A DNA stretch of 64,000 nucleotides, taken from positions 122,648-186,647 of the forward strand of contig CALIMM010000015.1 of the NCBI GenBank assembly GCA_938045445.1. Direction: 5' to 3'. The position numbers and the translations under genes are program-made. The notes under the pieces were generated by a model. It searched no databases and had not been told where the DNA came from. It was given only the letters and a program-made list of their open reading frames with translations. Position 1 is the stretch's first letter. Each line of letters begins with the position of its first letter. Shown here in pieces: positions 9,457-48,395 of the stretch. This stretch comes from an uncultured Candidatus Saccharibacteria bacterium (GTDB lineage: Bacteria; Patescibacteriota; Saccharimonadia; Saccharimonadales; Saccharimonadaceae).

Positions 9457-9831
9457 CTATGCATCAGCGTGACACACTGCCTCAATGTTATGCCCGTTTG
9501 GGTCGATGAGGAAGGCACCATAATAGTCTGGATGATAGATCGCTCGCACGCCTGGTGCGCCATTGTCCTGTGCTCCTGCTGCTAGGCCAGCTGCATAGAA
9601 TGCATCAACTGCTGCCCGCGACGGTGCAGCAAAAGCAAAGTGTAGTGGCGATGATGGCTCGCCTTGCCCAAGCCAAAATATCCTGGTGTGTTGCGTCCGG
9701 TCTGGATTACTAAAGCCTACGCCATATGATTCGTCAATTGTCTTGGCATACCCCAGTGGTGCCAATACCGCTTCATAAAAGGCCTTGCTTGCTTCAATGT
9801 CTTGAACGATGATGCCGAAGTGGTCGATCAT
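9457..9831 (-). CDS. VOC (glyoxalase/bleomycin-resistance/dioxygenase) family protein
   Basis: From ATG 9831 the protein reads MIDHFGIIVQDIEASKAFYEAVLAPLGY...YYGAFLIDPNGHNIEAV. SD GGAGG is at 9838-9842 on the minus strand. Confidence 0.85.
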   Translation of the reverse strand: MIDHFGIIVQDIEASKAFYEAVLAPLGYAKTIDESYGVGFSNPDRTQHTRIFWLGQGEPSSPLHFAFAAPSRAAVDAFYAAGLAAGAQDNGAPGVRAIYHPDYYGAFLIDPNGHNIEAVCHADA

Positions 9832-9905
9832 GAGGTACCTCCTTGTGATATATCGATTAGTGTATTGCCTCTTAAGTATACGCCACAAATGATGACAACA
9901 GTGTG

Positions 9906-10043
9906 TCAGTATTGAATATTTTTTTGTGTCTTTTGAATCACCCTGCGCTTCGACACCTCAAAGCGATCTGCTAACTCCTGAGCAGTGGCTTTGTCTCGCT
10001 CGCAGAGGAGAGATAGAATGGCGAGTAGACGCTGGAGTTTCAT
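9906..10043 (-). pseudogene. 45-codon remnant of a YafY/DeoR-type HTH regulator (N-terminal wHTH only)
   Basis: My own translation gives MKLQRLLAILSLLCERDKATAQELADRFEVSKRRVIQKTQKNIQY*. The first ~37 aa look like the HTH_11-type N-terminus of YafY-family regulators. The WYL/effector part is missing. The ORF is below the ORF-track cut-off. Confidence 0.45.
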
Positions 10044-10612
10044 AATAACCTTACCAGATAATTCGTATAGCAATTATATACCACTATTGTAGCAACGTAT
10101 GGCTCATCATGACAAAGAAAGATGTTTGTGAGAACAGATTATAAATAGGCTAATGGTATATAGATAGTAGGGGTATAGGTATTATTGCAGGATATACAGT
10201 CCCGTGTGCTGCGTGGCTGCCTGGTAAGATAGCGGCATCTCGGTATGTAGATACGTGTTGCGAGGCTTATGAGATGGTTGCTTTGCGTGATGGGGGTGCT
10301 ACCTTATTTTTTACTTCCTAGCATCACCCCCCGGCGAAAGACATAGTGGATTTAGATAGAATATATAGCAGTGTAAAAGCGAAAAATAACCACCTAACAG
10401 TGGTCTAGTGTCGGTAAAAAATCTCCACGACTTTTCCACATGACCCTAGACACTAGATATGGGCACGCTATATATAGTGTGGGTGAGACGAAACTCTTGA
10501 TACTAACAGAGGTAATAATATACAAAACTTGCACAATACTGTATTTAACGAGCACCCTGCGCACCATATGGTATAATTACCTCGATAACCCCATAAACAA
10601 GGAGATAAGCAG

Positions 10613-10990
10613 ATGAGTAATTTTCCGGTAGTGCGCGTCGAGCGTGTTGATGTGCGGAATGAGAGCGCGTCGAAGATAGATGTATGGGCACGCATCAAGA
10701 ATGAGTCCGACCGGCAGGTGAAGGTTGTGAGCTGGGAGTATCTGGGGAATATGCGCAACGAGTCGCACACGCTCAACCCGGGGAACACAGTTGATGTGAT
10801 GCTCTATAGCGGTGCACCCAAGAATTATCCAGACCAAATGTACATTCGCTACGAAGCCGAGCATGATGGTGGCAGGCATTACTTCTTGGCGCGGCACCAG
10901 GCGAAATTTGACGAGCGCTATAACAATGACACGAAATGGTATCGGCCATCAGATTGGATGGAGTTCCAGCGCGTGGACCGCGGTAACTAG
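10613..10990 (+). CDS. Hypothetical small beta-rich protein (125 aa)
   Basis: SD AAGGAG precedes ATG 10613. The stop TAG (10988-10990) is 1 nt from the rnhA ATG. Confidence 0.7.
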   Translation: MSNFPVVRVERVDVRNESASKIDVWARIKNESDRQVKVVSWEYLGNMRNESHTLNPGNTVDVMLYSGAPKNYPDQMYIRYEAEHDGGRHYFLARHQAKFDERYNNDTKWYRPSDWMEFQRVDRGN

Positions 10991-10991
10991 C

Positions 10992-11432
10992 ATGGCAGCC
11001 GCTCCACGCATTTTCTACACCGATGGCAGCGCCAGCCCCAACCCTGGCCCGGGCGGCTATGCCGTCATCGAGCAGGGCAAGCCCGTAGCGCTGGGCAGTG
11101 AGCCAGGCAACACGACGAACATCCGCATGGAGGGGATGGCCCTCATCACAGCCATGCAGTTAGCTGGGGCTGAGAAATGCGAGATTCATACCGATAGCGA
11201 ATTTTGGGTTAATGTCCTCACCAAGTGGGCACCTGGCTGGGCAGCCAAGGGCTGGCGCAAGAGCAGCGGGCCCATCAAGAATCTCGAGCTCGTGCAAGAA
11301 GCCTATGCGCTTTATACCACCGTGCAGCCAAAGCTCATCTGGGTGCGCGGCCACAACGGCCATGAGCAAAATGAGCTCGCCGACCAATGGGCCAACCGAG
11401 CACGAGCCGGGGAGCGGCTAGAGGAAGAATGA
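10992..11432 (+). CDS. rnhA: Ribonuclease HI
   Basis: From ATG 10992 the protein reads MAAAPRIFYTDGSASPNPGPGGYAV...NIRMEGMALI...IHTDSEFWVN...VRGHNGHEQNELADQWA. These are the DEDD catalytic residues in canonical RNase H context. Confidence 0.9.
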   Translation: MAAAPRIFYTDGSASPNPGPGGYAVIEQGKPVALGSEPGNTTNIRMEGMALITAMQLAGAEKCEIHTDSEFWVNVLTKWAPGWAAKGWRKSSGPIKNLELVQEAYALYTTVQPKLIWVRGHNGHEQNELADQWANRARAGERLEEE

Positions 11433-11439
11433 GTAGCTA

Positions 11440-11466
11440 AAAACCGGTTGTAATGACCGGTTTTTA
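11440..11466. terminator. Bidirectional-type terminator hairpin AAAAACCGGT-TGTAATG-ACCGGTTTTT
   Basis: A perfect stem is flanked by an A-tract and a T-tract. A near-identical copy lies at 30846-30870. Confidence 0.85.
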
Positions 11467-11663
11467 GGTGCAGAGGATATTGCTGCGTGGCGGCTTATAT
11501 AAGAATGCAGCTCTATGTACCAGGCTCAAGCTTGTAGCCAAGCGGCTGAACAATGCGTTCTTCCTCTCATGTTGAGTTAGCTGTATCTTTCTCGTCGCGT
11601 TGTGCTACATCAACGAGGTAGATATTCCTAGCATAAATATATGCTATACTATTACCAATATCA

Positions 11664-11770
11664 CTAATATCCAGAGTGCGACGAGGGACTGGCCCGATGA
11701 CTCGCCAGCAACCTGCTCGGGAAGCGAGTAAGGTGCTAATTCCAGCCTGTGCGCAGGGAAGATATGAGAC
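11664..11770 (+). promoter_or_regulatory. SAM-I (S-box) riboswitch
   Basis: AUAUCCAGAG..GACGAGGGACUGGCCCGAUGACUCGCCAGCAACC...AAGGUGCUAAUUCCAGC...GGGAAGAUAU matches the conserved S-box core. The P1 halves are ATATC/GATAT. A TATACT -10 lies at 11645-11650. The element sits directly upstream of metK. Confidence 0.9.
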
Positions 11771-11784
11771 GCGTAAGAGAGCAG

Positions 11785-11829
11785 CTCCTTTCTCGCCTGG
11801 TAGTGCAGGATAAGAGAAGGGAGTTTTTT
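11785..11829 (+). terminator. Riboswitch expression-platform terminator that also sequesters the metK SD
   Basis: CTCCTTTCTC (11785-11794) pairs with GAGAAGGGAG (11814-11823), which contains the SD. TTTTTT (11824-11829) abuts ATG 11830. Confidence 0.7.
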
Positions 11830-12840
11830 ATGACAGCAACGACTATAGCATCAGCGCAGTTTCGCACCGCCGAGAGCGTAAGCCCAGGCCACCCCGACAA
11901 GCTGTGCGACCAAATGAGCGACGCCATCCTTGATGCCTATCTGGCCCGCGACCCACAGGCACGCGTGGCGGTGGAAGTGTGCGGCGGCCATGGCATGGTG
12001 TTTGTGACGGGCGAAGTGACGTCGCAGGCGACGGTGGCAGTGGCACCGATTGTGCAGCGTTTGGCGGGGAGTGAAGTAGAGATAATTGAGCATATTGCGC
12101 AGCAGAGCCCAGAGATTGCTCGCGGTGTGGACGATGGTGGGGCAGGTGACCAAGGCGTGATGATCGGCTATGCTTGCAACGAAACGCCTGAGCTGCTCCC
12201 ACTCGAAACAGTGTTGGCACGGCGATTGAACCAATTTTTGTATCAACGTTGGCCCTACGATGGCAAAACGCAAGTAACACTGCGTGGCGGGCAGATAACG
12301 GCAATTGTTGCAAGCTTCCAACACGCGCCAAAAGACGAATTAACAGAGGCGGTAGAGGAGTGGCTTCAGCAGCAGACGTATGTGAACACATTTTTTAAGG
12401 ATAAGCAATATGACGCGCCAGTGCTACATTGCAACCCAGCCGGGGACTGGCAGATTGGTGGCTTTGCGGCTGATGCTGGCCTGACCGGGCGCAAGCTCAT
12501 CGTCGATAATTATGGGCCACGCGTGCCGATTGGTGGCGGGGCCTTTAGTGGTAAGGATGCCACCAAGGTGGATCGCTCGGCGGCGTATATGGCGCGGCAC
12601 ATTGCGGTGGATTATCTGCGGCACCACCACGCACAGGAGGTGCTGGTACGCCTGGCGTATGCAATTGGCCACAACCAGCCCGTCGAGGCGACTGCCATCA
12701 TCGATGGTGTGGAGCAGCCCATTGCAGGCTACGATCTCAGCCCACATGGCATCATCACCACGCTCCAGCTCGCCCAGCCCATCTACGAGCCAACCGCTCG
12801 CTGGGGGCACTTTGGTGAGGGGTTTGTGTGGGATCGGTAG
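11830..12840 (+). CDS. metK: S-adenosylmethionine synthetase (short, 336 aa)
   Basis: The protein begins MTATTIASAQFRTAESVSPGHPDKLCDQMSDAILDAYL and continues ...GAGDQGVMIGYA...GGGAFSGKDATKVDRSAAY. Start ATG 11830 lies downstream of the riboswitch, and the track's upstream start falls inside the riboswitch. Confidence 0.9.
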   Translation: MTATTIASAQFRTAESVSPGHPDKLCDQMSDAILDAYLARDPQARVAVEVCGGHGMVFVTGEVTSQATVAVAPIVQRLAGSEVEIIEHIAQQSPEIARGVDDGGAGDQGVMIGYACNETPELLPLETVLARRLNQFLYQRWPYDGKTQVTLRGGQITAIVASFQHAPKDELTEAVEEWLQQQTYVNTFFKDKQYDAPVLHCNPAGDWQIGGFAADAGLTGRKLIVDNYGPRVPIGGGAFSGKDATKVDRSAAYMARHIAVDYLRHHHAQEVLVRLAYAIGHNQPVEATAIIDGVEQPIAGYDLSPHGIITTLQLAQPIYEPTARWGHFGEGFVWDR

Positions 12841-13723: not shown

Positions 13724-13906
13724 ATATCTCTCCTCTCGCTTAAATAAGTAATGTGTCTATGGTAGAAGGGTGTTGCTGCTATGTCAAGGTTGTGGATTTG
13801 TCAGTGAAGTAGGTGTTGGTGTGTTTTTGTTAATGATGAGTTGCCTATATATAGAGAACATACCCATACTTTGCCTCTCACCCCACAACCTTGTATACTA
13901 GAGCCT

Positions 13907-15439
13907 ATGGATCAGACACTTGCACAGGAGATTTTGCGTAGTGGTCAAAGTGCGCTGCTGACAGGGCCAGCGGGCACGGGCAAGACGTATGTGCTGGGGC
14001 AGTTCATCCGCCAGTGTAAGGCGGATGGCAAGTATGTGTCCGTCACCGCCACGACGGGGCTTGCGGCGACGCACCTGGGTGGTAGCACCATCCATGCATG
14101 GGCGGGGATTGGCATTCATGATAGCTTGCCGAACAATTTTTTTGATCACCTGTCGAAGACGCGGCGCGATATTATTGCCAAGACAGATGTGCTCATCATC
14201 GATGAGATTAGTATGTTGCACGACTACCGCCTGGATATGATCGACGAAGTGTGCCGCCGGGTGCGCGAGATGCCGAATCAGCCTTTTGGCGGATTGCAGG
14301 TGGTAATGAGTGGGGACTTCTTCCAGTTGCCACCGGTTAATCGCGATGGTGGGCGGCAGGGGAGCTTTGTGGTGCAGTCGCAAGCTTGGCGACAGCTCGA
14401 CCCAGCTATTCTGTATCTCGACCAGCAATACCGCCAGCAAAAGGGCGACGCTCTGCTAGATATCCTAACGGCTATGCGAGCTGGTGACCTGCGCCGACGC
14501 CATGCCGAGCAACTACTAGCTCGCACAGAGGTAGAGCCACCTCACGAGAGCGACCTAACCGAGCTTCATACCGTCAATATCGACGTTGATCGGATCAACC
14601 AAGCCCGCCTCGCTGAGCTGCCTGGCGACGAAGTATCGTACCAGCGCAGCAGCACTGGTGGGCAAAATTATGTCGACACCTTGCAGCGGAGCATCCTCGC
14701 GCCGGAGGTGCTGGTGCTCAAGCGGGGTGCGCTGGTGATGGCCATCAAGAACGACCAAGCGCGGCGCTTTGCTAATGGGAGCATTGGCCAGGTAACAGAC
14801 TTCGAGCCAGGCACAGACTACCCCGTGGTGGAGTTTCGTAATGGCCATGTGGTGACGATGCAGCCTGACACCTGGGAGCTGCGCGATGGTACGCGCAAGC
14901 GGGCCAGCATCTCGCAGTTGCCGCTGCGCCTGGCTTGGGCGATTACTGTGCACAAGAGCCAGGGGATGACGCTCGATAGCGCACGCATCGACCTACGCAA
15001 AGCCTTTGTCCCGGGCATGGGCTACGTGGCACTGAGCGGCGTTAAGGGCCTCGACAATATATATCTCACTGGTATCAATCGGATGGCACTTACCATGAGC
15101 GATGAAGCCTATATCATCGACACGCAGCTGCGCACTCGTGCCGCCCAAGATGCCGAGCGCTTTGCCCATCTGCGCGAACAGGCTGCTCAGCGTGCTACGA
15201 TGCCACAGAAGAAGCCGACGGGCAAAACTGGCAGCACTAGCTGGGCGGCCAAGATCGCCACAATGCGCCAGACTCACCCCAACGCCTACAAACCATGGAC
15301 AAAGGCCGATGATGAGACACTCAAGCAAGGCTTTGTCCAAGGCGTGAGTATCCGCCAGCTCAGTCGCGAGCTCGGCCGGCACGAAGGCTCGATAAAAATG
15401 CGATTGCAAAAGCATTTTGGTGAGGATGCGGTGCAGTAG
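13907..15439 (+). CDS. PIF1/RecD-like SF1 helicase with C-terminal HTH
   Basis: Walker A is LLTGPAGTGKTY, Walker B is VLIIDEISML, and the PIF1-signature-like region is GGLQVVMSGDFFQLPPV. The C-terminus KPWTKADDETLKQGFVQGVSIRQLSRELGR is Myb/HTH-like. TATACT (13894-13899) lies 7 nt before ATG 13907. Confidence 0.85.
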   Translation: MDQTLAQEILRSGQSALLTGPAGTGKTYVLGQFIRQCKADGKYVSVTATTGLAATHLGGSTIHAWAGIGIHDSLPNNFFDHLSKTRRDIIAKTDVLIIDEISMLHDYRLDMIDEVCRRVREMPNQPFGGLQVVMSGDFFQLPPVNRDGGRQGSFVVQSQAWRQLDPAILYLDQQYRQQKGDALLDILTAMRAGDLRRRHAEQLLARTEVEPPHESDLTELHTVNIDVDRINQARLAELPGDEVSYQRSSTGGQNYVDTLQRSILAPEVLVLKRGALVMAIKNDQARRFANGSIGQVTDFEPGTDYPVVEFRNGHVVTMQPDTWELRDGTRKRASISQLPLRLAWAITVHKSQGMTLDSARIDLRKAFVPGMGYVALSGVKGLDNIYLTGINRMALTMSDEAYIIDTQLRTRAAQDAERFAHLREQAAQRATMPQKKPTGKTGSTSWAAKIATMRQTHPNAYKPWTKADDETLKQGFVQGVSIRQLSRELGRHEGSIKMRLQKHFGEDAVQ

Positions 15440-15631: not shown

Positions 15632-16453
15632 ATGGCAAATCCAGAGAGAGAGAGAGCCTTAACAGGTAGCGCTGAGCGCCGAAGTATAAAAGACTCCATA
15701 ATCATCCAATCATTGGGCCAGTTGTCGACCCATCGTGTAATCACGCTAGAAAATACATCACCAAGTACAGCCAGTATCATAAAACAACCAACAGGCACTG
15801 CCTCCGTCCGGCAGAATAGTATTTTCCTTAGCGCTCGAGAAAAGATGAAAGACAGCTTCATTATGTTGGGGTATGTAAAGGAATCTCAAGCGACCATGCG
15901 GCTTAATTCACATGATATTGCCTATGTAGAGATGAACTCGTCTGGAAGGGTATCTCTTGAAAAAAACGAGACGGGTGTGATAGCGACAAGCGGGTTGGCA
16001 GGCTGCACTGGTGTGGCTGGTTTTGCAAAAAGTCGAGATGGGAAAATTCAATCGTTTGTTTCGCATTATGATGCTCTGAGTCAGAATAGCCGCATAACAG
16101 GAAAAGATAGTCCGGTTAATCGGGATCTCTATACTTTTCGCTACCAAGTAGAAAAAGACGACACCCAAAGTACGCCATTGTATGTTGTTTCATATCCTGC
16201 ATCGAGTTGCTATGATCAGGATTATGGTAAGCGACGGGGAGTGTTTCGAGAATGGCATTATATGGACCAGATCAATACTACAATAGCGCAGCTGGGCAAA
16301 AACGCACAAGTCCTCCTCTTGCCATATGAGCTTAACTCGCAAGGTCACTCTCTTGCGAGTGGCCGTATTGATGGCAAAGAAGGGATATTTTGGGATGGTG
16401 TCTATATTGATTTTGCTGACTATATTGGCGATACGGCAGCTAACAAACAGTAA
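15632..16453 (+). CDS. Hypothetical soluble protein with a candidate Cys-His active site (L-A-G-C ... S-H-Y-D)
   Basis: SD AAGGAG (15621-15626). 273 aa with no hydrophobic helices. IATSGLAGCTGVAGFAKSRDGKIQSFVSHYD is reminiscent of CheD/CNF1/BLF1-type deamidase Cys/His spacing, a weak similarity recalled from memory. The gene is visibly AT-richer than its flanks. Confidence 0.65.
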   Translation: MANPERERALTGSAERRSIKDSIIIQSLGQLSTHRVITLENTSPSTASIIKQPTGTASVRQNSIFLSAREKMKDSFIMLGYVKESQATMRLNSHDIAYVEMNSSGRVSLEKNETGVIATSGLAGCTGVAGFAKSRDGKIQSFVSHYDALSQNSRITGKDSPVNRDLYTFRYQVEKDDTQSTPLYVVSYPASSCYDQDYGKRRGVFREWHYMDQINTTIAQLGKNAQVLLLPYELNSQGHSLASGRIDGKEGIFWDGVYIDFADYIGDTAANKQ

Positions 16454-16494
16454 CAAGTTTAGTTATAAAGGTATAGTTGTAGTAGAATAGCTAC

Positions 16495-17610
16495 ATGCAT
16501 AACCAACCAAACACACAAACCCCCACTACCGATACCACCTCAGTAACGCCACCAGAGCTAGCTGCCACGCCGCAGAGTGATGCAGACGTGGCCGCCCATG
16601 CCGAGGCTCAGCCAACAGATACTACCGCACAGTCTACGGCTGACACATCTACCGACGCTACCGACATCTTCCTCTGGGCTAACCAAGCCGATCGCGACAA
16701 AGACCAGCTGGAGGTGGATCTCTTCCTCTTTACCAAGGGCTATACGGTGTATGCTACCAACTATGCGGCCGAGCTCAAGGCACAGCTCAAGGTGCTCTTC
16801 CTCTACGATATGATCACGGCGGTGCAGACAGGTGCAGCGACTGGCCTGATGGTGCGCGACTTCGAGGCGGCCAAGGCTGAGGAAAATGTCCTTGAGCGCA
16901 CCACGCTCGACCGGGTAGTGCATGCTCAGGAAGTCATCGAGCAGATCACCTATAGCGAGGCAGACCTCGAGACCTTCAACGAGGGTGACCATGAATTCAA
17001 GAAGGTTAAGGGTATCATTGCGCGCTTCCGGATGGGCACAGATGGTGAGCCATTCTTCGTGGCCAAGCTGCTGCCCCAGTCGCAGGTGCTCAAGGGGGCA
17101 ACCGCCTGGATGTACAGCGGTGGGTCGTTCCAGCCATTTGTGGCTGATGCGGGGCTGCGCATTACGCCAGATAATCAGGTGTTGATCGTCGGCAACGATA
17201 TTTTTGCCTTTAGCGAGAGCAAATTCGTCCGGCTCTTTGGCTACGATGCCAAGAAGCACGCTGTGGCGGAGGAGAAGATCGCTGCCATCACGCAGCAGTT
17301 CAAACTTACCTTGCCTGAGGGGCTCACGCTCGACCGCCTAGTGCGCGATACGCCAGCGCTGGTGACTAAACTGCAAAAGCTCGACCCCGCCCAGGTGACA
17401 CAAGACCAACTGATCGACCACGCCGACGAAATGGGCCTGGGCCTGATGACGGACGACGCGGCAGGGAGCATCATTATCATGGATGCCAAGGATGCAGCCG
17501 TTTTTGTCAATCTCCTCAACGACGACTACGTCACGAGCGACCTGACCGGCGTCAAATACGAAATGCGCGGCAAGAAGATCTTGCGCGAGAACGAGCAATT
17601 GCCGGAGTAG
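16495..17610 (+). CDS. DUF4868/KwaB-like protein with a low-complexity N-terminus
   Basis: 371 aa. The N-terminal 60 aa are T/A/D/Q-rich. The C-terminal part (...QVLIVGNDIFAFSESKFVRLFGYD ... AAVFVNLLNDDYVTSDLTGVKYE...) resembles the DUF4868 family as I remember it. TAGAAT (16483-16488) lies 6 nt before the ATG. The CDS is confident; the family call is moderate. Confidence 0.6.
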   Translation: MHNQPNTQTPTTDTTSVTPPELAATPQSDADVAAHAEAQPTDTTAQSTADTSTDATDIFLWANQADRDKDQLEVDLFLFTKGYTVYATNYAAELKAQLKVLFLYDMITAVQTGAATGLMVRDFEAAKAEENVLERTTLDRVVHAQEVIEQITYSEADLETFNEGDHEFKKVKGIIARFRMGTDGEPFFVAKLLPQSQVLKGATAWMYSGGSFQPFVADAGLRITPDNQVLIVGNDIFAFSESKFVRLFGYDAKKHAVAEEKIAAITQQFKLTLPEGLTLDRLVRDTPALVTKLQKLDPAQVTQDQLIDHADEMGLGLMTDDAAGSIIIMDAKDAAVFVNLLNDDYVTSDLTGVKYEMRGKKILRENEQLPE

Positions 17611-22921: not shown

Positions 22922-22997
22922 TTATCCACATTGTGCAGAGTGGGGAAAACCACCGACCCCTGATACTGGTTGAGCTTTTCCACAGATTTGTGGATAA
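22922..22997. promoter_or_regulatory. Cluster of three DnaA boxes
   Basis: TTATCCACA (22922-22930) is a perfect match. TTTTCCACA (22976-22984) has one mismatch. TGTGGATAA (22989-22997) is a perfect match in inverted orientation. An AT-rich tract lies at about 22757-22785. Confidence 0.6.
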
Positions 22998-23086: not shown

Positions 23087-23155
23087 TAACCACGAGAAAA
23101 ACAAACACCACTGCACAAAAACAAAATAATTCATCTGTAAGGATCACCACACCCC

Positions 23156-23518
23156 ATGGATTACTTCGAACGCAAGCTGGATGACAAGCGTCGGCTCACC
23201 ATACCGACGGAGCTTCGGGCAGAGTTCGCCAGTGGCGTGGTCCTGACGCGCGGCTTTGGCAGCTACCTCCACCTGTATGCGCAGGATGTGTGGGATAGCC
23301 AGGTAGAGCCAGCGTTGACGGGCAGCATCCTGGATGAACATGTCGCCGACCTCAACGTCAAGTTCCGGCGCGGCAAGACGGCTGCCACTCTGGACCAGAA
23401 GCAGGGCAGGGTAACGGTAGAGCAGCATCTGCTGGATTATGCTGGGATATCGCGCGAGGTTGTGGCGGTGCGCGCCGGCCAGTATTGGCGCCTCATGGCA
23501 CCGGAGCAGGCTGAGTAG
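23156..23518 (+). CDS. mraZ: Transcriptional regulator MraZ
   Basis: There are two SpoVT/AbrB-like halves, each with the DxxxR signature (LDDKRRLTIP and LDQKQGRVTV). It is the first gene of the dcw cluster. Confidence 0.9.
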   Translation: MDYFERKLDDKRRLTIPTELRAEFASGVVLTRGFGSYLHLYAQDVWDSQVEPALTGSILDEHVADLNVKFRRGKTAATLDQKQGRVTVEQHLLDYAGISREVVAVRAGQYWRLMAPEQAE

Positions 23519-23659
23519 CAAGGCTGTTTTTGTGACGCTCTTTAACAAGTACGTGTAACTGATATCCTCGAGATCAACCATCTGGTAGTGAGCCATGTGG
23601 GCACCCGACCCACGCAAAACCTTGTCGGGCGCACCTTCCTCACAAACACCTCCCAAAAA

Positions 23660-24000
23660 CTCCACCTCACATAATTGCTGCGGCAATTATACACATAAGT
23701 CTCTCAAACGATCTTTGGCGGGCTCTCTCGGCCTGGTACAAGCAAAGATCGTCAACAAAAACAAACACATTTTATGCGAAAACAAACAGGTTTCGCTACC
23801 AGGTGGGTGATCTCGAACCCGCATCGGACTATCTCGCAGTAGCCTGAGCGGGGCGTATCTTTATGGAAAAGCATAGCTATACCTATCGGTAGCATTGCCG
23901 TGCCACCCTCCTGCCGAGGGAGTGTGATAATCCGTTGCAATAACGGATTATCAGCCCAGCGCAAGAGGTCAACATCTGGGAGATGTTGACCCTTATAGTG
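23660..24000. other. Hairpin-dense non-coding spacer (candidate structured RNA or decayed insertion; strand unresolved)
   Basis: Stems lie at 23671-23690, 23710-23750, 23776-23796, 23803-23822 and 23904-23924. Two perfect 11-bp hairpins lie at 23926-23952 and 23967-23991. There is no credible ORF. Confidence 0.4.
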
Positions 24001-31537: not shown

Positions 31538-32464
31538 ATGGGCTTTCGCACAAAACAAACACCACCACCCGCGCGCCGCCGAGCTGCCAAAAACAAGAGG
31601 GAAGAGCAGCCCCAGCGCACCGCCTACACCTACCGGCGTAACCGGACGCTGACCGGTAGCTTGGTGAGCCGTGTGCCGAGTGCGAGCGAGCCCAAGGCGC
31701 AGCTGCGGTCGCCGCGTATGCATGCGCATGATTTGCGCCGGACGCGCCGCCGCGTGGTATTGTCGCTTGGAGTAGTGATGGGGCTGCTGGCTGCAGTGTG
31801 GTTTGCGCTTGATAACGTCATTGCGACACCAGTTGTTGCAGGCAATCTCACCAGCAACCATCAGCTCTACCAAGCCAAGATCAACGACTATCTCACTGCC
31901 CATCCGCTGGAGCGTTTTCGCTTTGCACTCAATACTAGTCGGCTGGCGGCCTATCTCCAGACGCATGATTGCCCCGAGGTGGCCGCAGTGCTTCCAGCCA
32001 CGCAGCAAGCTGGCTTGGGGCGTAGCACCATCACCCTCGCTATGCGCCAGGCAGCAGTGGTCTGGACGGTTAATCGCCAGCAGCTCTTTGTCGATACCGA
32101 GGGCCACGCCTTCCGCCGCGCTTATGGGTCACGGCCAAGCATTGAAGTAGTGGACGACAGTGGTATCGGCACGCGCAATAACCAAGTCGTCGCGAGCAAC
32201 CAATTCCTCGGTTTTATCGGTAAAGTCGTCGGCGCAGTCCGCCGCCACCAGCTCACCGTCCAAAAGATCACGCTGCCTGCTGGCACGACGCGTCAAATCT
32301 ACGTTTGGTTTACAGGGGTGGAGTATCCTGTTAAGTTCTCGGTCGATCGCTCGGCTGGCTTGCAGAGCGAGGACGCCGCCCGGGCCATCCGCTACCTGGC
32401 GCAGCACCACATCACCCCCAAATACCTCGACGTCCGCGTCAGTGGCCGAGCAGCGTATCGGTAA
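31538..32464 (+). CDS. ftsQ: FtsQ/DivIB-like division protein
   Basis: It has a basic N-terminus, one TM helix (VVLSLGVVMGLLAAVWFAL), then a POTRA/FtsQ-like ectodomain, and its position in the dcw cluster fits. The start is uncertain: TATAAT (31519-31524) precedes ATG 31538, and the track's start at 31370 would overlap the divergent promoter. Confidence 0.7.
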   Translation: MGFRTKQTPPPARRRAAKNKREEQPQRTAYTYRRNRTLTGSLVSRVPSASEPKAQLRSPRMHAHDLRRTRRRVVLSLGVVMGLLAAVWFALDNVIATPVVAGNLTSNHQLYQAKINDYLTAHPLERFRFALNTSRLAAYLQTHDCPEVAAVLPATQQAGLGRSTITLAMRQAAVVWTVNRQQLFVDTEGHAFRRAYGSRPSIEVVDDSGIGTRNNQVVASNQFLGFIGKVVGAVRRHQLTVQKITLPAGTTRQIYVWFTGVEYPVKFSVDRSAGLQSEDAARAIRYLAQHHITPKYLDVRVSGRAAYR

Positions 32465-32538
32465 TGGGGAACTTGTTAATAACAAAGGTATTAGCGCTTG
32501 TAAAGTACAGGACCAACAAGGAAACTGGTCTATAGTAT

Positions 32539-32562
32539 GGATATTGAGATATCCGCTTTTTC
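32539..32562 (+). terminator. Weak AT-rich terminator after ftsQ
   Basis: GGATAT (32539-32544), loop TGAG, ATATCC (32549-32554), then GCTTTTT. Confidence 0.4.
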
Positions 32563-32707
32563 TATAGCGTCTTCACCGTCATTGATGGGACGAGATCGAT
32601 TGTCATGAGTAACGACCAGAGGATGATTAGTTTTGACGTAAGAGTCCGACATCCTGATATTCACGAGAGGTATTAAGCTATAAACCTTTCTGAGAATGGA
32701 GCGGCAT

Positions 32708-32788
32708 AAGAGAAATTACTGAGGTTATGAAGCATCGGTTTCGTCGCTAACTGCAGCGCATCCAGCAAAGGGTAGGGGAGCTCTGTAA
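32708..32788. repeat. Copy C (with internal insertion) of the ~60-nt intergenic repeat
   Basis: AAGAGAAATTACTGAGG ... CCAGCAAAGGGTAGGGGAGCTCTGTA corresponds to the ends of copies A and B. Confidence 0.4.
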
Positions 32789-34388
32789 AACAAGAACAAA
32801 TTTACAACACTTTACATAACAAAGCATAAAAAATGCAAATAATATATTTATACTACAAAATCGACAAAATGCAAAAAAGAGTAGGGGAGATGTTTTTTGC
32901 GAAAAAGTCAAATCATGATATTGTATAGATTTTTAATCTCGGTCAACTCAAGCAGGGTAGAAAACATAGCAAAAATACCAAGCAAACAAAATGTCAAACA
33001 ACGCAACCATGGCTCAGAATCTGTGGGGCTCAGGTTAGTATTAGTATTGGTATGACGTCAGGCAAACACGAGACCGGAATACGTATGTCTAGTTCTGCGG
33101 CCAAGCTCATTTGTTCGATATCGAGCCACTGCACAGACAAGTTACAAACCTTGCGCAGCAAACAAACACATTCACACGAACAAACGTACATAACTTTGCA
33201 CGCATGAATGTTCATGAACATATACACAGTGTGTTCCCTCCAATAGAACAAGCGTCTGCTTTTACTTTTGCAGGACGTATAAGTGCCCGCAGCTCTATCC
33301 TTACTCTCCCCATTGGATGGCGCGGATATCTTAAGTGAACCTGCTGAACAAGAAGCAAGATCGATCAATAATCGAAGATCTATATACCGGATATATACGT
33401 TTTATGCTCATGAAGCCCATAACCGCCAAACCCAGCTCAATTCGGGCCGCATCTGGGGTCAGATCTATATATGCATCGTAAAAGGATTATTGTGCGAAGT
33501 TATATTACACTCCTAAAGATGATCAATGATACATCCTTTGCGTCTACCCTACTGCTGCGTGGATGTGAATTATTGTGTACGCGTTGATTGCGATACATGG
33601 CGACTCATCATTCCCTTGTCTATGGGCGCTGATGTTTATGCTTATGCTTATGCTTTGCTGCTAGCTGCTACTTTTGCTGTGCATGGTTGCTTGCTATATT
33701 GTGTAGTATAGTTAATCAGCGCGGTAAGATTGTGAGCTTTCTGGGTATATTTCTATGCGGCTTTAGGTTGTTATTGATTGCTAGCTTAATAGCTTTCATC
33801 TAAGCCGAAACCTATATGCTGTGTGCTGCTGCCAGGACAAGTATGACTCTCTGACTGGCCTAAGAGATATAGGCAGAGAGATGGCCTGACGGTGAGCAGA
33901 GAGCTACAGCTCAGGTGAGGTATGTCACGAGAACACAGCTCTCGAATATGAGCTTATCAGTGGTAGGTGTTAGTGAAATGAGGCAGAAACAGGGGTAGGG
34001 CGGTTGCCGGGGATTTTTTGGCGAAAGGGTGGCAGACTCCCCTGCCTTGCCCTGCCCTTTTTGTTTGCTTTTGCTGTGTACTTGAGATGCTCTCTGCAAA
34101 AGGAATAGATGCAAGAGGTATATATGAGCAAATTGTAGCTGCGATGGAATTATCTTGCATACAAACGGTCGATACATAAGCCTATGAGTGCAAAATCACA
34201 CGCGAATATCCGCAGCCATCATGTGTATACGATATTTGTCCAGGCGGCAAATTACCTCTGTTATAGCTGAGTATATGTAGTGTTCGGGGCGGGAGGGGAA
34301 GGCCACTTCCCTATCGTTATTTCTCTCAACCTGTAGACTCGAGCTCTCACTTATTTTCAGGCTGTTTATGATCCACCAAAATAAAGAC

Positions 34389-35126
34389 TTATGCTCTTGT
34401 GAGGATGAGTACTGAGATGCGTTTGGCTCGCCCAACACCAATGTGCTCGGGCACAGAGAGATTCGACACCGCTAATCCTGCCTCCGTAGCCGCAGCAATA
34501 TACTCCTTCATTGGCCGATGAAAGAAAAGAACTCGCTCTGGATGCGCGTCCTTGCCATGAATCCGGAACGGGATTTCAAAGACGTAAGATGTTTGCATGT
34601 TATAGTCAGATACATCTACATCGCTTCTTCCTGGCAGATAGGTATCTGGGTTGGGCAATGTTGCAATAAACGCACCGTCAGCCGCAAGAAGCCGAGCTGC
34701 TGCGGCAAAGAATGAATAATGGTTTGGCACACAATGCAACACCATATTTGCCACGAGTGCATCAAAGGAAGCGTTGGGATGGTTGTAGGCATAGTCTTCA
34801 AGAGACGTGGCTTCAAATTGAAGATGAGACTGCGTATGCGTTGTGGAAGCAATCTCAATACCTTGATCAGCCGGATCAATTCCAACTACCGTAAAACCAA
34901 GTGATGCAATATGGCTGGACAAAAACCCAATGCCACAGCCAACATCAAGTACGCTACCATGACCGTCCGGTAATAATCCGGTCAGTTTCTGTAGAATAAG
35001 ATGCGAGAGCGCCCGATACGACGGGTCGTCGTTTGATCCTAATTCGTGCAGACGTGCTGCGGAATTAGCGTTCCAGCGGGCTGCTTGGTCGGTGACAGTG
35101 TAGGTGTGAGATGAATGGATTGTCAT
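34389..35126 (-). CDS. Class I SAM-dependent methyltransferase
   Basis: VLDVGCGIGFLSSHIA...VVGIDPA is motif I and post I. TAGAAT lies 9 nt upstream of the ATG. Confidence 0.85.
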   Translation of the reverse strand: MTIHSSHTYTVTDQAARWNANSAARLHELGSNDDPSYRALSHLILQKLTGLLPDGHGSVLDVGCGIGFLSSHIASLGFTVVGIDPADQGIEIASTTHTQSHLQFEATSLEDYAYNHPNASFDALVANMVLHCVPNHYSFFAAAARLLAADGAFIATLPNPDTYLPGRSDVDVSDYNMQTSYVFEIPFRIHGKDAHPERVLFFHRPMKEYIAAATEAGLAVSNLSVPEHIGVGRAKRISVLILTRA

Positions 35127-47001: not shown

Positions 47002-48395
47002 CGGCCCTGGCGCAGTGGACGAGCGCCCTGCAGGCCCTGACGCCGCCCCAGCAGCGTGAGCTCACCCAGCAGCTGGCCAGCATCCCACCGATTACAATTG
47101 CCGGCAAGCAGGCTAGTGTGCTGCTGGCTCCCCTGCCCCTGACGCCGCCAGCCGCGGCCCAGCTTACCCAGGCCATCTATACCCTGCAGGATGCCCTGGT
47201 GGCGATTGAATCCCACCCAAGCTTTATGCCTGGCCAGGTGGTGTACGACCGGCTGTACCAGTCGCTCAGTGCCCAGGGTAAATATTTGGTCGATCACGCG
47301 CCGCCGGTTAGCCCACGCACCATGCGCCGCCGCTTTCGCCGGATTGATGGCTTTTTGCCGCTTGCGCCCCACAGCCCTGGGCCGCAGTTTATTGAGGTGA
47401 ATCAATCCGCGCCCTTAGCAATCAGCTTTTATGAGCGTGCCCGCCAGGCGCTCGCTATAGCTGCCGGGTACGTACCGGCTGTTCAGGCCGCCCCGGCCCC
47501 TAGCGCACCGAACACACCGGGCGTGGCTGATTCGCCATCACTCTACGCAGCGCTGGCAGACTGGTTTATAGACGCTGCCCCGGGCCGATCAAGCCTGACG
47601 GTGGCCGTGAGCATGGAGCGTGGCTACCCAGCAAAGTTTGTCGATCTACCCACCGCCACCGCTGGCATTACCCAGGCTGCCCGGGAGCGTGGTGTAGAGA
47701 TTCGCTTTGTGCTGGCGCAGCCGCCGGAATTTGGCTACCAATCGGGGCGCATGACGGTGCGTGGCCATAGCTTTGATGTGCTGTGGCGTAATACCGTGTA
47801 CCTGGCGAATTATGATGTCGATATTGCCGACTACCAGGCTATCCGCTACAGCCCGGCTGTGGTGCAGCAGAATGACCTGCGGGCCTGGCTGCTGCGCTCG
47901 AAGGAGCTCTTTGCCCTCGCGTGGGACGATACGGTGCAGGCGGTGCTCGCTGATATGGGGGTGGATGTGGCGGCCCTGCGGCGCATCATGCCACCGACCT
48001 ATAGCCTGGCAGCAGCCCAGCAGCTGGATTGGCAGCACACCCACCGCCGGCAGGACTATATTGCAAAACGCTGCGACGATGGCTTTGGCCAGGGGCTGGT
48101 GTTTGGCCACCAGTGCACGGCAAGCCAGTGGCACACCCTGCTGGCAGGCAGCCGCGGCCAGGATTGGGTGGTGCAGCGGCTGGTGCCAGTTGCCCCGGTG
48201 GAGGTGCCGCTGTATACACCAGGCCATGGCATCCACACCCAGGCAGTCACGCTTGATTGCAACCCCTACACCGCTAGCGGTAAGCTGGCCGGGGTGCTCG
48301 CCCGGGCAATGCCGGCAGCACAGCAAACGGCTGGCCCGCAGGCTATGAATATTGTGGCGGGGGCGGCCATCGGTGCCTATACTGGCGTGGTATAG
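46992..48395 (+). CDS. ATP-grasp-like ligase (glutathionylspermidine-synthase / circularly permuted ATP-grasp type)
   Basis: RRIDGFLP...GPQFIEVNQSAPLAISFYE, NDLRAWLLRSKELFALAWD, DYIAKRCDDGFGQGLVF and DWVVQRLVP resemble the conserved blocks of GspS-like/CP-ATP-grasp enzymes, recalled from memory. GTG 46992 overlaps the OCD stop by 10 nt. Confidence 0.55.
   Translation: MDIAALAQWTSALQALTPPQQRELTQQLASIPPITIAGKQASVLLAPLPLTPPAAAQLTQAIYTLQDALVAIESHPSFMPGQVVYDRLYQSLSAQGKYLVDHAPPVSPRTMRRRFRRIDGFLPLAPHSPGPQFIEVNQSAPLAISFYERARQALAIAAGYVPAVQAAPAPSAPNTPGVADSPSLYAALADWFIDAAPGRSSLTVAVSMERGYPAKFVDLPTATAGITQAARERGVEIRFVLAQPPEFGYQSGRMTVRGHSFDVLWRNTVYLANYDVDIADYQAIRYSPAVVQQNDLRAWLLRSKELFALAWDDTVQAVLADMGVDVAALRRIMPPTYSLAAAQQLDWQHTHRRQDYIAKRCDDGFGQGLVFGHQCTASQWHTLLAGSRGQDWVVQRLVPVAPVEVPLYTPGHGIHTQAVTLDCNPYTASGKLAGVLARAMPAAQQTAGPQAMNIVAGAAIGAYTGVV

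Follow-up and report, generated by a model that had tools for sequence, protein, structure and literature searches.

A syntenic non-coding region behind the dcw cluster

In the 64-kb stretch of an oral Candidatus Saccharibacteria chromosome analysed here (the window), the plus-strand genes mraW, ftsI, mraY, ftsW and murG are followed by an FtsQ-like gene that ends at 32464, and the next gene borders at 34389 on the minus strand, where a methyltransferase gene, a sigma70_r4/HARE-HTH protein gene, topA, a CDP-alcohol transferase gene and dprA lie. This confirms, overall, the gap and the strand switch described from the letters alone in an earlier, sequence-only reading, with the gene-strand bias converging on the gap from both sides. 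The features of the region are as follows.

31538-32464, plus strand: protein in the FtsQ position (308 aa), last dcw gene, left border of the gap
32465-34388, no strand assigned: AT-rich, ORF-poor non-coding region (ORF scan, GC, synteny)
32765-33004, plus strand: Block A, A-rich array of short boxes, conserved in the genus (alignment)
32770-32777, plus strand: GGGTAGGG, last plus-strand KOPS-type octamer before the dif-like site, pointing at it (octamer scan)
33425-33574, no strand assigned: Block B, most conserved part of the gap in the genus, holding the dif-like site (column conservation 0.89-0.99)
33473-33500, no strand assigned: dif-like 28-bp site GCATCGTAAAA-GGATTA-TTGTGCGAAGT, with left arm 33473-33483, central region 33484-33489 and right arm 33490-33500 (conservation and architecture)
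33526-33711, plus strand: hydrophobic 61-aa ORF, probably no gene (weak codon periodicity, indel, breaks)
33992-34078, plus strand: long G+C-rich hairpin with U-rich run, terminator-like on the plus strand (folding)
34050-34057, minus strand: GGGCAGGG, first minus-strand KOPS-type octamer, pointing back at the site (octamer scan)
34205-34294, no strand assigned: Block D, conserved in the genus (alignment)
34389-35126, minus strand: SAM-dependent methyltransferase, right border of the gap, variable cargo

The longest ORF in the gap comprises 112 aa (33030-33368, minus strand) and all others at most 88 aa, in line with the claim of an essentially ORF-free region. A gene caller places a single 65-aa gene in the gap (on a 99.98% identical ENA oral-metagenome contig). 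The low GC content that had been pointed out is also present: the GC fraction is 0.444 for the gap with 100 nt on either side and falls to a minimum of 0.285 at 32800-32999, i.e. about 0.44 for the gap compared to ~0.52-0.60 (about 0.55) for the flanking genes. Other stretches of 0.9-1.9 kb in the window are likewise uncovered by ORFs of at least 150 aa; the gap is not the sole one.

Comparison with related loci shows that the position of the gap is a property of the order. A syntenic gap of 700-1900 nt with a GC content of 0.33-0.44 lies 3' of the FtsQ-like gene throughout. The expectation that ftsA and ftsZ should follow ftsQ is not borne out, as ftsZ is found within 10 kb in none of the 79 related Saccharimonadales loci while all 79 have an AT-rich, ORF-poor gap at this place, ruling out that the gap is a hole left by ftsA/ftsZ. 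The FtsQ-like protein itself has no Pfam domain; its 382 homologues come from Saccharibacteria in every named case. On the other side, about 12 of 38 congeneric loci have the methyltransferase gene, and the rest carry different small genes in its place.

The 28-bp site and its conserved surroundings

The dif-like site at 33473-33500 consists of two 11-bp imperfect inverted arms separated by a 6-bp spacer (11-6-11). In the window the two arms agree at 7 of 11 positions, in the order-wide consensus at 8 of 11. A single copy is found in the window and in each 20-kb locus, apart from loci with a prophage. The core CGTAAAAGNNNTATTGTGCGA occurs exactly once per locus, at constant strand and position, in 60 of 85 loci, and nearly all of the remaining loci with enough downstream sequence carry a version with at most three changes. 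The motif is kept even where the FtsQ-like protein is only 40% identical, and within the genus ~38 nt at the site are almost invariant, compared to a third-codon-position diversity of 0.12-0.15 in neighbouring genes. Identity to the dif sites of E. coli and B. subtilis is moderate, amounting to 15-18 of 28 positions in either orientation, much of it owing to the AT-rich centre, and does not fix the orientation of the site. No xer or ftsK gene lies within the window or the loci examined, and a tyrosine recombinase gene was not observed up to 10 kb from the site.

The conservation extends beyond the site. About 110 nt of conserved DNA directly abut the left arm and further boxes reach out to ~450 nt, on one side only; this DNA may represent accessory or regulatory sequence. 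Conservation in Blocks A, B and D is about double that of third codon positions, and relatives with 63-65% identity in the FtsQ-like protein also retain the core of Block D (34217-34261). Block A contains GTAGGGGAG twice together with AAAATGCAAA(T) / AAAAGTCAAAT boxes and is homologous to the TAGGG / AAAAGCAAAT box array of more distant relatives. The two GTAGGGGAG 9-mers that had been noticed are indeed located at 32772 and 32881; further copies are found at 17607 and 24104, and all four are on the plus strand, compared to an expected number of 0.25. In contrast to the claim that the gap holds a copy of an intergenic repeat ("copy C"), no repeat family was reproduced, the 22-mer at 32775 having no second copy in the window. 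The terminator-like structure reported near 34025-34070 corresponds to a long hairpin that spans 33992-34062 and leads into a U-rich run (-53 kcal/mol, z = -3.2), and the region 33992-34078 bears KOPS-type octamers on both strands.

All 39 distant relatives have one DnaA box (TGTGGATAA or TGTGGAAAA) left of the motif, in constant orientation and at a distance of 192-315 nt (192-268 nt in all but one). No DnaA box with up to one mismatch is present in the window gap, the box having been lost in the genus of the window. At the motif the AT skew flips locally. A -10-like hexamer lies 4-9 nt upstream of the motif in most lineages (TATAAT in L049, L055, L063 and L064), and an ATG is found 20-25 nt downstream in many.

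Several other assignments were considered for this DNA and dropped. Alignments judged by eye do not support a parS site, a sigma-70 promoter with proper spacing or a true CIRCE operator. ARAGORN detects no tmRNA in the window or in 35 loci, and RNase P, SRP or other known RNAs give no Rfam match; a resemblance of GCUGAUUC...CGUAAAAG to the tmRNA 5' region is superficial and was abandoned because neither ARAGORN nor Rfam gave a match. Covarying column pairs from a brute-force search represent only noise from G-T permissiveness. The frames of minus-strand ORFs left of the motif differ by lineage, indicating that conservation acts at the nucleotide level.

Octamer polarity, skew and inovirus-like elements

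Octamers of the KOPS type are distributed asymmetrically about the site. In the window, GGGNAGGG occurs in a plus:minus ratio of 7:1 left of the site and 1:10 right of it (Fisher p = 0.0012), and the wider motif family in ratios of 13:1 and 1:14 (p = 3e-6), with the best switch point at 34.0 kb. Pooling the window with 41 more distant loci, which are homologous and therefore not independent, gives 73:2 left of the site and 3:23 right of it. The octamers on both sides thus read towards the dif-like site, being on the plus strand to its left and on the minus strand to its right. Their strand follows position and not gene orientation: the octamers at 47131, 49530 and 49781 are on the minus strand within plus-strand genes, while that at 23404 is on the plus strand within the minus-strand ORF 23144-23686. 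Right of the site the polarity also opposes the local G excess. KOPS are oriented from the origin towards dif (PMC2680272, PMC3384302).

The GC skew behaves differently. On the plus strand the sign of both GC skew and GC3 skew is constant throughout the 64 kb, with GC3 skew at ~+0.01 left of the gap and ~+0.19 right of it. The values in 26 distant loci are +0.078 on the left and +0.072 on the right, and no sign change was found within ~9 kb on either side in 56 related loci. There is hence no inflection at the gap, the outcome that the sequence-only reading had itself named as speaking against its proposal, and a replication terminus in the sense of skew is unsupported; the skew-defined terminus lies elsewhere. 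As dif is usually found at or near the switch in GC skew, reading the site as dif places it more than 30 kb from that switch (~3% of a genome of ~1 Mb).

Further evidence for a dif-type (Xer) site comes from relatives in which inovirus-like prophages of 5-6 kb abut it exactly, bounded by one full and one hybrid site. A 5.0-kb block follows the site directly in L076 (sites at 11410 and 16394) and a 5.9-kb block in L066 (sites at 11310 and 17259); in both, the second copy differs in its left arm but shares the central region and the right arm. The blocks code for a Zot / protein-I-like ATPase (PF05707; phrog_197, phrog_1675) and an inovirus rolling-circle Rep (PF23343; phrog_3419), while no integrase domain was found among the scanned ORFs of at least 110 aa. 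Kinship to known inoviruses is distant (Pfam and PHROG E-values of 1e-5 to 1e-16). The boundary is well defined by an empty-site comparison, in which L066 and L072 are 97% identical through the last base of the site and unrelated past it. L081 retains just the first gene of such an element.

This is further supported by 44 IMG/VR viral contigs that carry the 17-mer of the site, many of them 4-6 kb long, with a Zot homologue in 20 and a Rep homologue in 11. In three of the contigs (L114, L121 and L124), zot and rep are enclosed by a full and a hybrid copy that lie 5.4-5.9 kb from each other, and some viral copies show nearly perfect arm symmetry (ACGTCGCAAAA...TTGTGCGACGT). The window itself harbours no prophage. 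Filamentous phages without an integrase are known to enter dif by means of XerCD (PMC4246890, PMC5357621).

Interpretation and relation to known Xer systems

Taken together, the gap is probably the dif region of this Candidatus Saccharibacteria chromosome. In the corresponding mechanism, the Xer-type tyrosine recombinase or recombinases of the cell would bind the site, and at division a septum-anchored translocase of the FtsK type would be guided to it by the polar octamers, so that a crossover within the central region could resolve chromosome dimers. In relatives, inovirus-like phages with an attP that reproduces the central region and the right arm integrate at the same site, presumably in an Xer-mediated manner, which corresponds to the behaviour of integrative mobile elements exploiting Xer (IMEX). 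Repeated integration, partial excision and decay on the right may then have led to the variable non-coding DNA and the changing cargo there. Of the earlier proposal of a terminus or dif region, or of a recombination or insertion hotspot, the hotspot and dif parts are supported, given the dif-type site, the convergence of KOPS-type octamers, prophages exactly at this position in relatives and the variable right side, whereas a terminus defined by skew is not.

The site resembles the dif sequences of E. coli (XerC/XerD) and B. subtilis (CodV/RipX) in its length of 28 bp, its 11-bp imperfect inverted arms and its AT-rich 6-bp centre, as well as in being a single copy per locus at the convergence of gene orientation. 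GGGNAGGG is moreover the same octamer as the E. coli KOPS, with polarity converging on the site (PMC2680272). The arms differ, reading GTCGTAAAA / TTGTGCGAC here and ...GCGCATAA / TTATGTTAAAT in classical dif. Unlike classical dif, the site has no sign change of GC skew within 30 kb, and conserved non-coding DNA of 0.7-1.9 kb surrounds it at a constant syntenic position directly after the dcw cluster. In the E. coli and B. subtilis systems, guidance is provided by FtsK/SpoIIIE and KOPS/SRS motifs.

The elements share several properties with IMEX such as CTXphi, VGJphi and TLCphi of Vibrio cholerae or the GGI of Neisseria: they are small, filamentous-phage-like and have no integrase that could be found, their dif-like attP has one arm and the central region in common with the host site (PMC4246890, PMC5357621), and they are integrated exactly at the site with a full and a hybrid copy as bounds. 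They differ from these examples in that the hosts, where known, are Saccharibacteria, the phages are distant from known inoviruses and the window carries no element. A run of A at the end of an arm beside the centre, as in difH (AGTTATGAAAA) and difSL (TTTCCGAAAA; PMC5357621), is also seen here, where the left arm ends in TAAAA. The near-perfect arm symmetry of some viral copies would suit a single recombinase, as with XerS or XerH. In contrast to XerS/difSL and XerH/difH, where the recombinase gene adjoins the site, none was seen within 10 kb, and the central region comprises 6 bp compared to 11 bp in difSL. The combination of a core Xer-type site with long one-sided conserved DNA recalls the plasmid sites cer and psi; the locus is however chromosomal and the flank sequences are unrelated.

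Alternatively, the motif might be a mere attB, or a conserved promoter or leader targeted by phages, with no role in dimer resolution. GC skew without inversion at the site is consistent with this, as are the -10-like hexamer and the ATG at short distance on either side of the motif and a real small gene after it in L066, L076 and L081. This gene is however part of the inserted element, no integrase is present among the scanned prophage ORFs, the inverted 11-6-11 arms with a crossover in the spacer have the architecture of an Xer site, and the convergence of KOPS-type polarity and gene orientation would be unexplained by an ordinary attB, so that we judge this explanation improbable. The same-oriented DnaA box in 39 of 39 distant relatives, the AT-rich DNA with iterated short boxes, the local AT-skew flip and the rise of GC3 skew from ~0 to +0.19 across the gap might suggest a replication origin or an element through which DnaA controls replication, a reading that we consider highly improbable. 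The DnaA box is single in the distant relatives, with no cluster as expected for oriC, and lost in the genus of the window; total GC skew is positive on both sides; genes and octamers converge on the site, while at an origin they diverge; and a Pfam scan of window ORFs with 150 aa or more shows neither dnaA nor dnaN. A closed Saccharibacteria genome replicates bidirectionally from a skew-defined origin between dnaN and dnaA (PMC6031116). Simple decay of former genes or of a prophage is very unlikely as an explanation of the gap. Relatives at 63-65% identity carry AdoMet_dc and a 940-aa VirD4/TraG-like ATPase after the gap, both absent here, the right edge is variable, and L081 demonstrates that decay of this kind occurs at the site. 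Nevertheless, AdoMet_dc, the VirD4/TraG-like ATPase and the alternative cargo genes from congeners reveal no relic in the gap when used as tblastn queries, comparison with the 44 viral contigs yields no nucleotide match and two weak translated matches (E = 7e-4 and 8e-3), and the gap is at the same position in all lineages with blocks under constraint. For the decayed prophage or gene proposed earlier there is thus no detectable relic in the window, the relatives showing how such decay could arise at the site; decay may account for part of the right-hand 0.9 kb.

That non-coding RNA(s) or a small membrane protein constitute the main function of the gap appears rather unlikely. The candidate would be a plus-strand transcript of ~600 nt from ~33476 to the hairpin at 34062, acting either as an independent RNA or as mRNA for the 61-aa ORF. 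The -10-like element 5' of the motif, the strong hairpin with its U-run, the fold of the 611-nt segment (z = -2.1), the twofold conservation of the three blocks and a hydrophobic ORF that stays open in many congeners are consistent with such a transcript. With Rfam 15, at the gathering score or an E-value threshold, there is however no match in the window gap or in seven relatives, the best sub-threshold match in the gap being a miRNA model on the hairpin (E = 0.3). RNAalifold of 43 sequences (~200 nt around the motif) returns six invariant or nearly invariant pairs and no compensatory ones at -1.9 kcal/mol. The large non-coding RNA put forward in the sequence-only reading thus finds neither a family match nor a covarying structure. 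As to the protein, the DNA of the ORF is poor in A, so that few stop codons are expected by chance, and the diversity of the ORF at the three codon positions (0.078 / 0.118 / 0.135) differs from that of a neighbouring gene (0.015 / 0.009 / 0.152). A 1-nt indel between congeners shifts the C-terminal frame, several congeners have an interrupted ORF, and the frame in which homologous DNA is read varies across lineages. We therefore rejected the 61-aa membrane protein as the main explanation on the basis of codon-position diversity, frameshifts and A-poor composition. An RNA or small protein is compatible with the dif reading.

The order-wide conserved flank of 0.5-1 kb might also be a functional module of its own, combined with a dif site far from the skew-defined terminus across the order, which we consider unlikely. 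The parts of this module would be the single, precisely positioned DnaA box, the TAGGG / AAAAGCAAAT array, the CCCC/GGGG hairpin and a CIRCE-like TTAGCACTC-N9-GTATGCTGA element. Placed directly behind the dcw operon, it could make dimer resolution and cell division responsive to replication status (through DnaA) or to stress signals, as an accessory or regulatory region; alternatively, an undescribed RNA could be encoded there.

Work on dif, KOPS and Xer-exploiting phages has been carried out mainly in Proteobacteria and Firmicutes. Our literature search turned up no account of them in Saccharibacteria or in further ultrasmall CPR bacteria, and nothing relevant on non-coding RNA at this locus. 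If the dif reading is correct, it would provide the dif sequence for an order of Saccharibacteria, indicate that the E. coli-type GGGNAGGG guide motif is in use in this group, and identify a family of 4-6 kb filamentous phages integrating at the site. It would account for a striking "empty" stretch in which automatic annotation places no features and draw attention to the conserved flank with its DnaA box. The site would further represent a natural, integrase-free insertion point, which could help the genetics of these hard-to-manipulate epibionts.

The gap and its conservation

The gap behind the FtsQ-like gene is confirmed as the sequence-only reading had outlined it (window positions 32465-34388): its longest ORF has 112 aa and its GC content is 0.44 with a minimum of 0.29, compared to a window value of about 0.55. 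That reading had also placed the GTAGGGGAG 9-mers and the hairpin correctly, while its intergenic repeat could not be reproduced. On the twin contig from a human oral metagenome, 99.98% identical to the window across 18.6 kb, a gene caller predicts a single 65-aa gene in the gap. Named homologues of the window genes belong to Candidatus Saccharibacteria or Saccharimonas. Based on Pfam, the plus-strand genes before the gap are, in order, CofD, a nucleotidyl transferase, mraW, a possible ftsL, ftsI, mraY, ftsW and murG, followed by the FtsQ-position gene; behind the methyltransferase gene follow, on the minus strand, a sigma70_r4/HARE-HTH protein, topA, a CDP-alcohol phosphatidyltransferase and dprA. 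Gene orientation thus converges on the gap, as noted earlier.

The gap and its borders (window positions; blocks from a MAFFT alignment of congeners)
31538-32464, plus strand, FtsQ-position protein, 308 aa, without Pfam domain, last gene before the gap
32765-33004, conserved block A
33425-33574, conserved block B, holding the motif
33473-33500, candidate dif-like site (the motif), GCATCGTAAAA-GGATTA-TTGTGCGAAGT
33905-34054, conserved block C
34205-34294, conserved block D
34389-35126, minus strand, methyltransferase (Pfam), first gene past the gap

The gap had been taken for the place of missing ftsA and ftsZ genes. An FtsZ tblastn probe gave no match in the window or in any of the 85 loci, and a survey of 79 loci (one genome per GTDB species scanned) found an AT-rich, ORF-poor stretch of about 0.7-1.9 kb with a GC content of 0.33-0.44 in every lineage with downstream DNA present. 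Together these two observations argue for a conserved gap that is ancestral to the order rather than for an ftsA/ftsZ deletion. Relatives with a 63-65% identical FtsQ-like protein keep the gene order, with a gene-poor gap of 1.2-1.5 kb behind that gene. Past the gap, the surveyed lineages usually carry a minus-strand VirD4/TraG-like ATPase (~940 aa), then a sigma-like gene and topA.

This membrane-anchored ATPase adjoins the dif-like region in most Saccharimonadales (e.g. 9758-12538, minus strand, in L085; 12608-15436, plus strand, in L002), is inverted in the L002/L004 clade and is absent from the locus in the window's genus. It comprises DUF8128, DUF87/HerA and TrwB/TraG/VirD4-type domains, and no FtsK_SpoIIIE domain was matched in it. 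In two loci, long tandem arrays built of short units are inserted behind the FtsQ-like stop, ahead of the conserved boxes (AGAACTT/AGAACTC-type in L055; CTAAGCT, broken by a run of N, in L059).

Across its full length the gap aligns at 79-90% identity in 38 species of the genus, with indel-rich DNA between the four blocks. Diversity is 0.04-0.10 in blocks A, B and D versus 0.16-0.18 in the spacers and 0.12-0.15 at third codon positions of neighbouring genes, which points to moderate constraint on these blocks and about neutral change in the remaining gap. What distant relatives share is the core of block B alone. In 60 of the 85 loci the exact pattern CGTAAAAGNNNTATTGTGCGA is present as one copy, always on the same strand and some 400-490 nt past the FtsQ-like stop, and nearly all others with enough sequence have it with at most three changes; within the genus some 38 nt around the motif are almost invariant.

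A dif-like site, filamentous phages and polar octamers

The motif consists of two 11-bp arms with imperfect dyad symmetry and a 6-bp spacer between them (order consensus ATGTCGTAAAA-GATATA-TTGTGCGACGT), a layout that corresponds to the architecture of Xer/dif sites (PMC5357621). It is identical to E. coli and B. subtilis dif at 15-18 of 28 positions. We read it as a candidate dif site because of three independent observations, namely prophages at the site, polar octamers and the converging gene orientation. The earlier proposal of a dif region or recombination-insertion hotspot is thus supported, by evidence beyond that on which it was made.

In the relatives L066 and L076, and as a remnant in L081, a plus-strand gene block directly to the right of the motif replaces the usual spacer. 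It encodes a small conserved protein, a 481-520-aa protein, a Zot/protein-I-like ATPase (PF05707; phrog_197, phrog_1675) and a rolling-circle Rep (PF23343; phrog_3419), and no integrase was found among the scanned ORFs of at least 110 aa in the L066 and L076 blocks. Both of these blocks stop at a second motif copy, 5.0 and 5.9 kb downstream, in which the central region and right arm are identical and the left arm is different. L066 and L072 are 97% identical up to the motif's last base and unrelated beyond. Moreover, 44 viral contigs of IMG/VR, many of them 4-6 kb long, contain the 17-mer AAGATATATTGTGCGAC. Zot homologues (36-60% identity) are encoded in 20 of these contigs and Rep homologues in 11, and three have a full and a hybrid site copy separated by 5.4-5.9 kb, with zot and rep in the interval. 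Classic IMEX elements are integrase-less filamentous phages that use the host XerCD to integrate at dif (PMC4246890, PMC5357621).

The viral contigs form a family of 4-6 kb inovirus-like genomes with a dif-like site, some copies of which have almost perfectly symmetric arms (ACGTCGCAAAA-GATATA-TTGTGCGACGT). The central region and inner right arm recur as a degenerate second copy some 85 nt downstream of the window site (33569-33579; GAATTATTGTG versus GGATTATTGTG) and about 80 nt right of the L002 site (GGGATTTTGTCC versus GGGTTATTGTGC); judged by eye, this copy could be what an ancient integration, since deleted almost completely, left behind as a hybrid-site scar.

When k-mers were screened without bias for a strand preference that flips at the motif, the G-rich words AGGGGAG, GCAGGGGA, CAGGGAAG and GGGCAGGG emerged. 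In E. coli, GGGNAGGG is the KOPS motif that orients FtsK towards dif (PMC2680272, PMC3384302). Its plus:minus counts in the window are 7:1 left of the site and 1:10 right of it (p = 0.0012), those of a wider motif family 13:1 and 1:14 (p = 3e-6), with the best strand-switch point at 34.0 kb; the window and 41 distant loci together give 73:2 and 3:23. Octamer strand tracks position and not gene orientation, as seen for three minus-strand octamers in plus-strand genes (47-50 kb) and one plus-strand octamer in a minus-strand ORF (23.4 kb). Within 600 nt, AGGG-type words point at the site from both sides, which also accounts for the TAGGGG boxes and for the TTCCCT that is conserved some 130 nt to the right.

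GC skew and other readings of the gap

A replication terminus marked by GC skew, as had been suggested, finds no support: cumulative skew climbs across the whole window and its sign is unchanged. Plus-strand third-position skew is about +0.01 left and +0.19 right of the gap in genes of either strand, and in 26 distant loci both flanks are equally positive (+0.078 and +0.072). The rise at the gap (1-32 kb versus 34-64 kb) opposes the GGGNAGGG polarity on the right-hand side. Unidirectional replication offers no way out of the discrepancy, since a closed Saccharibacteria genome reportedly has ordinary bidirectional skew with the origin between dnaN and dnaA (PMC6031116). The discrepancy would be reconciled most simply by a distance of more than 30 kb between the site and the point where forks meet. 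The B. subtilis dif is also displaced from its terminus.

A replication origin is ruled out by the converging genes and octamers, the positive skew on both sides and the presence of at most one DnaA box. The proposed large non-coding RNA is not supported: ARAGORN found no RNA genes, Rfam gave no matches and RNAalifold detected no covarying structure around the motif in 43 sequences. A plus-strand transcript may nonetheless start at about 33476 and run to the hairpin and U-run at 33992-34078. A 61-aa ORF is probably not a gene, given its A-poor DNA, weak codon periodicity, frameshifts and lack of protein conservation across lineages. Simple decay is likewise unsupported, as no relics of genes present in relatives were found in the gap. 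Right of the site the DNA is variable and cargo genes differ among congeners; relatives carry a filamentous phage insertion there, and one such phage has decayed in L081. Phage insertion and decay may plausibly have given rise to part of the right-hand non-coding DNA.

Elsewhere in the window, a SAM riboswitch (RF00162, 76 bits; 11664-11768) lies directly upstream of an S-adenosylmethionine synthetase gene (11749-12840). At 16495-17610 the window encodes a KwaB-like protein (PF16162, Kiwa anti-phage defence); the 273-aa ORF in front of it has no Pfam domain and could be KwaA (region 15632-17610), and a PIF1-family helicase (13841-15439) lies just upstream of this pair. At 600-1460, in DNA covered by no ORF of at least 150 aa, tandem repeats of about 126 nt that have diverged to 61-76% identity look like a minus-strand repeat protein running towards the window edge, possibly a beta-propeller.

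The left flank and the dif reading

The DNA left of the site is conserved order-wide. Moving away from the site it comprises a -10-like hexamer, AGACGTATGCTGATTCATCT, a CIRCE-like TTAGCACTC-N9 element, a CCCC/GGGG hairpin, about 150 nt of variable DNA, a single DnaA box (distant relatives), an A-rich array of TAGGG and AAAAGCAAAT boxes that is the counterpart of the window's block A, and a conserved ATGTTCTATTTTTGTTC just past the FtsQ-like stop. The DnaA box (TGTGGATAA or TGTGGAAAA) is found in 39 of 39 distant relatives, 192-315 nt left of the motif at nearly fixed distance and in fixed orientation (e.g. L085 ~9161, L050 ~11129), and is absent from the window's genus and the L002/L004/L043 clade.

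A separate DnaA-box cluster occupies non-coding DNA that precedes the dcw cluster at its mraZ/mraW end (22922-22997), with two perfect TTATCCACA (22922, plus; 22989, minus) and TTTTCCACA (22976) within 75 bp and a further TTATACACA at 23687. Because GC skew does not switch there, these boxes may mark a promoter under DnaA control or simply a box cluster, rather than oriC.

The left flank may be accessory or regulatory DNA, and its conservation leaves some further interest in the locus. As GC skew keeps its sign and the displacement of the site from the fork-meeting point is conjectural, we hold our confidence short of certainty and make no claim of a replication terminus. For an order of Saccharibacteria the motif is quite probably the dif site, accompanied by a KOPS motif and IMEX-like phages.
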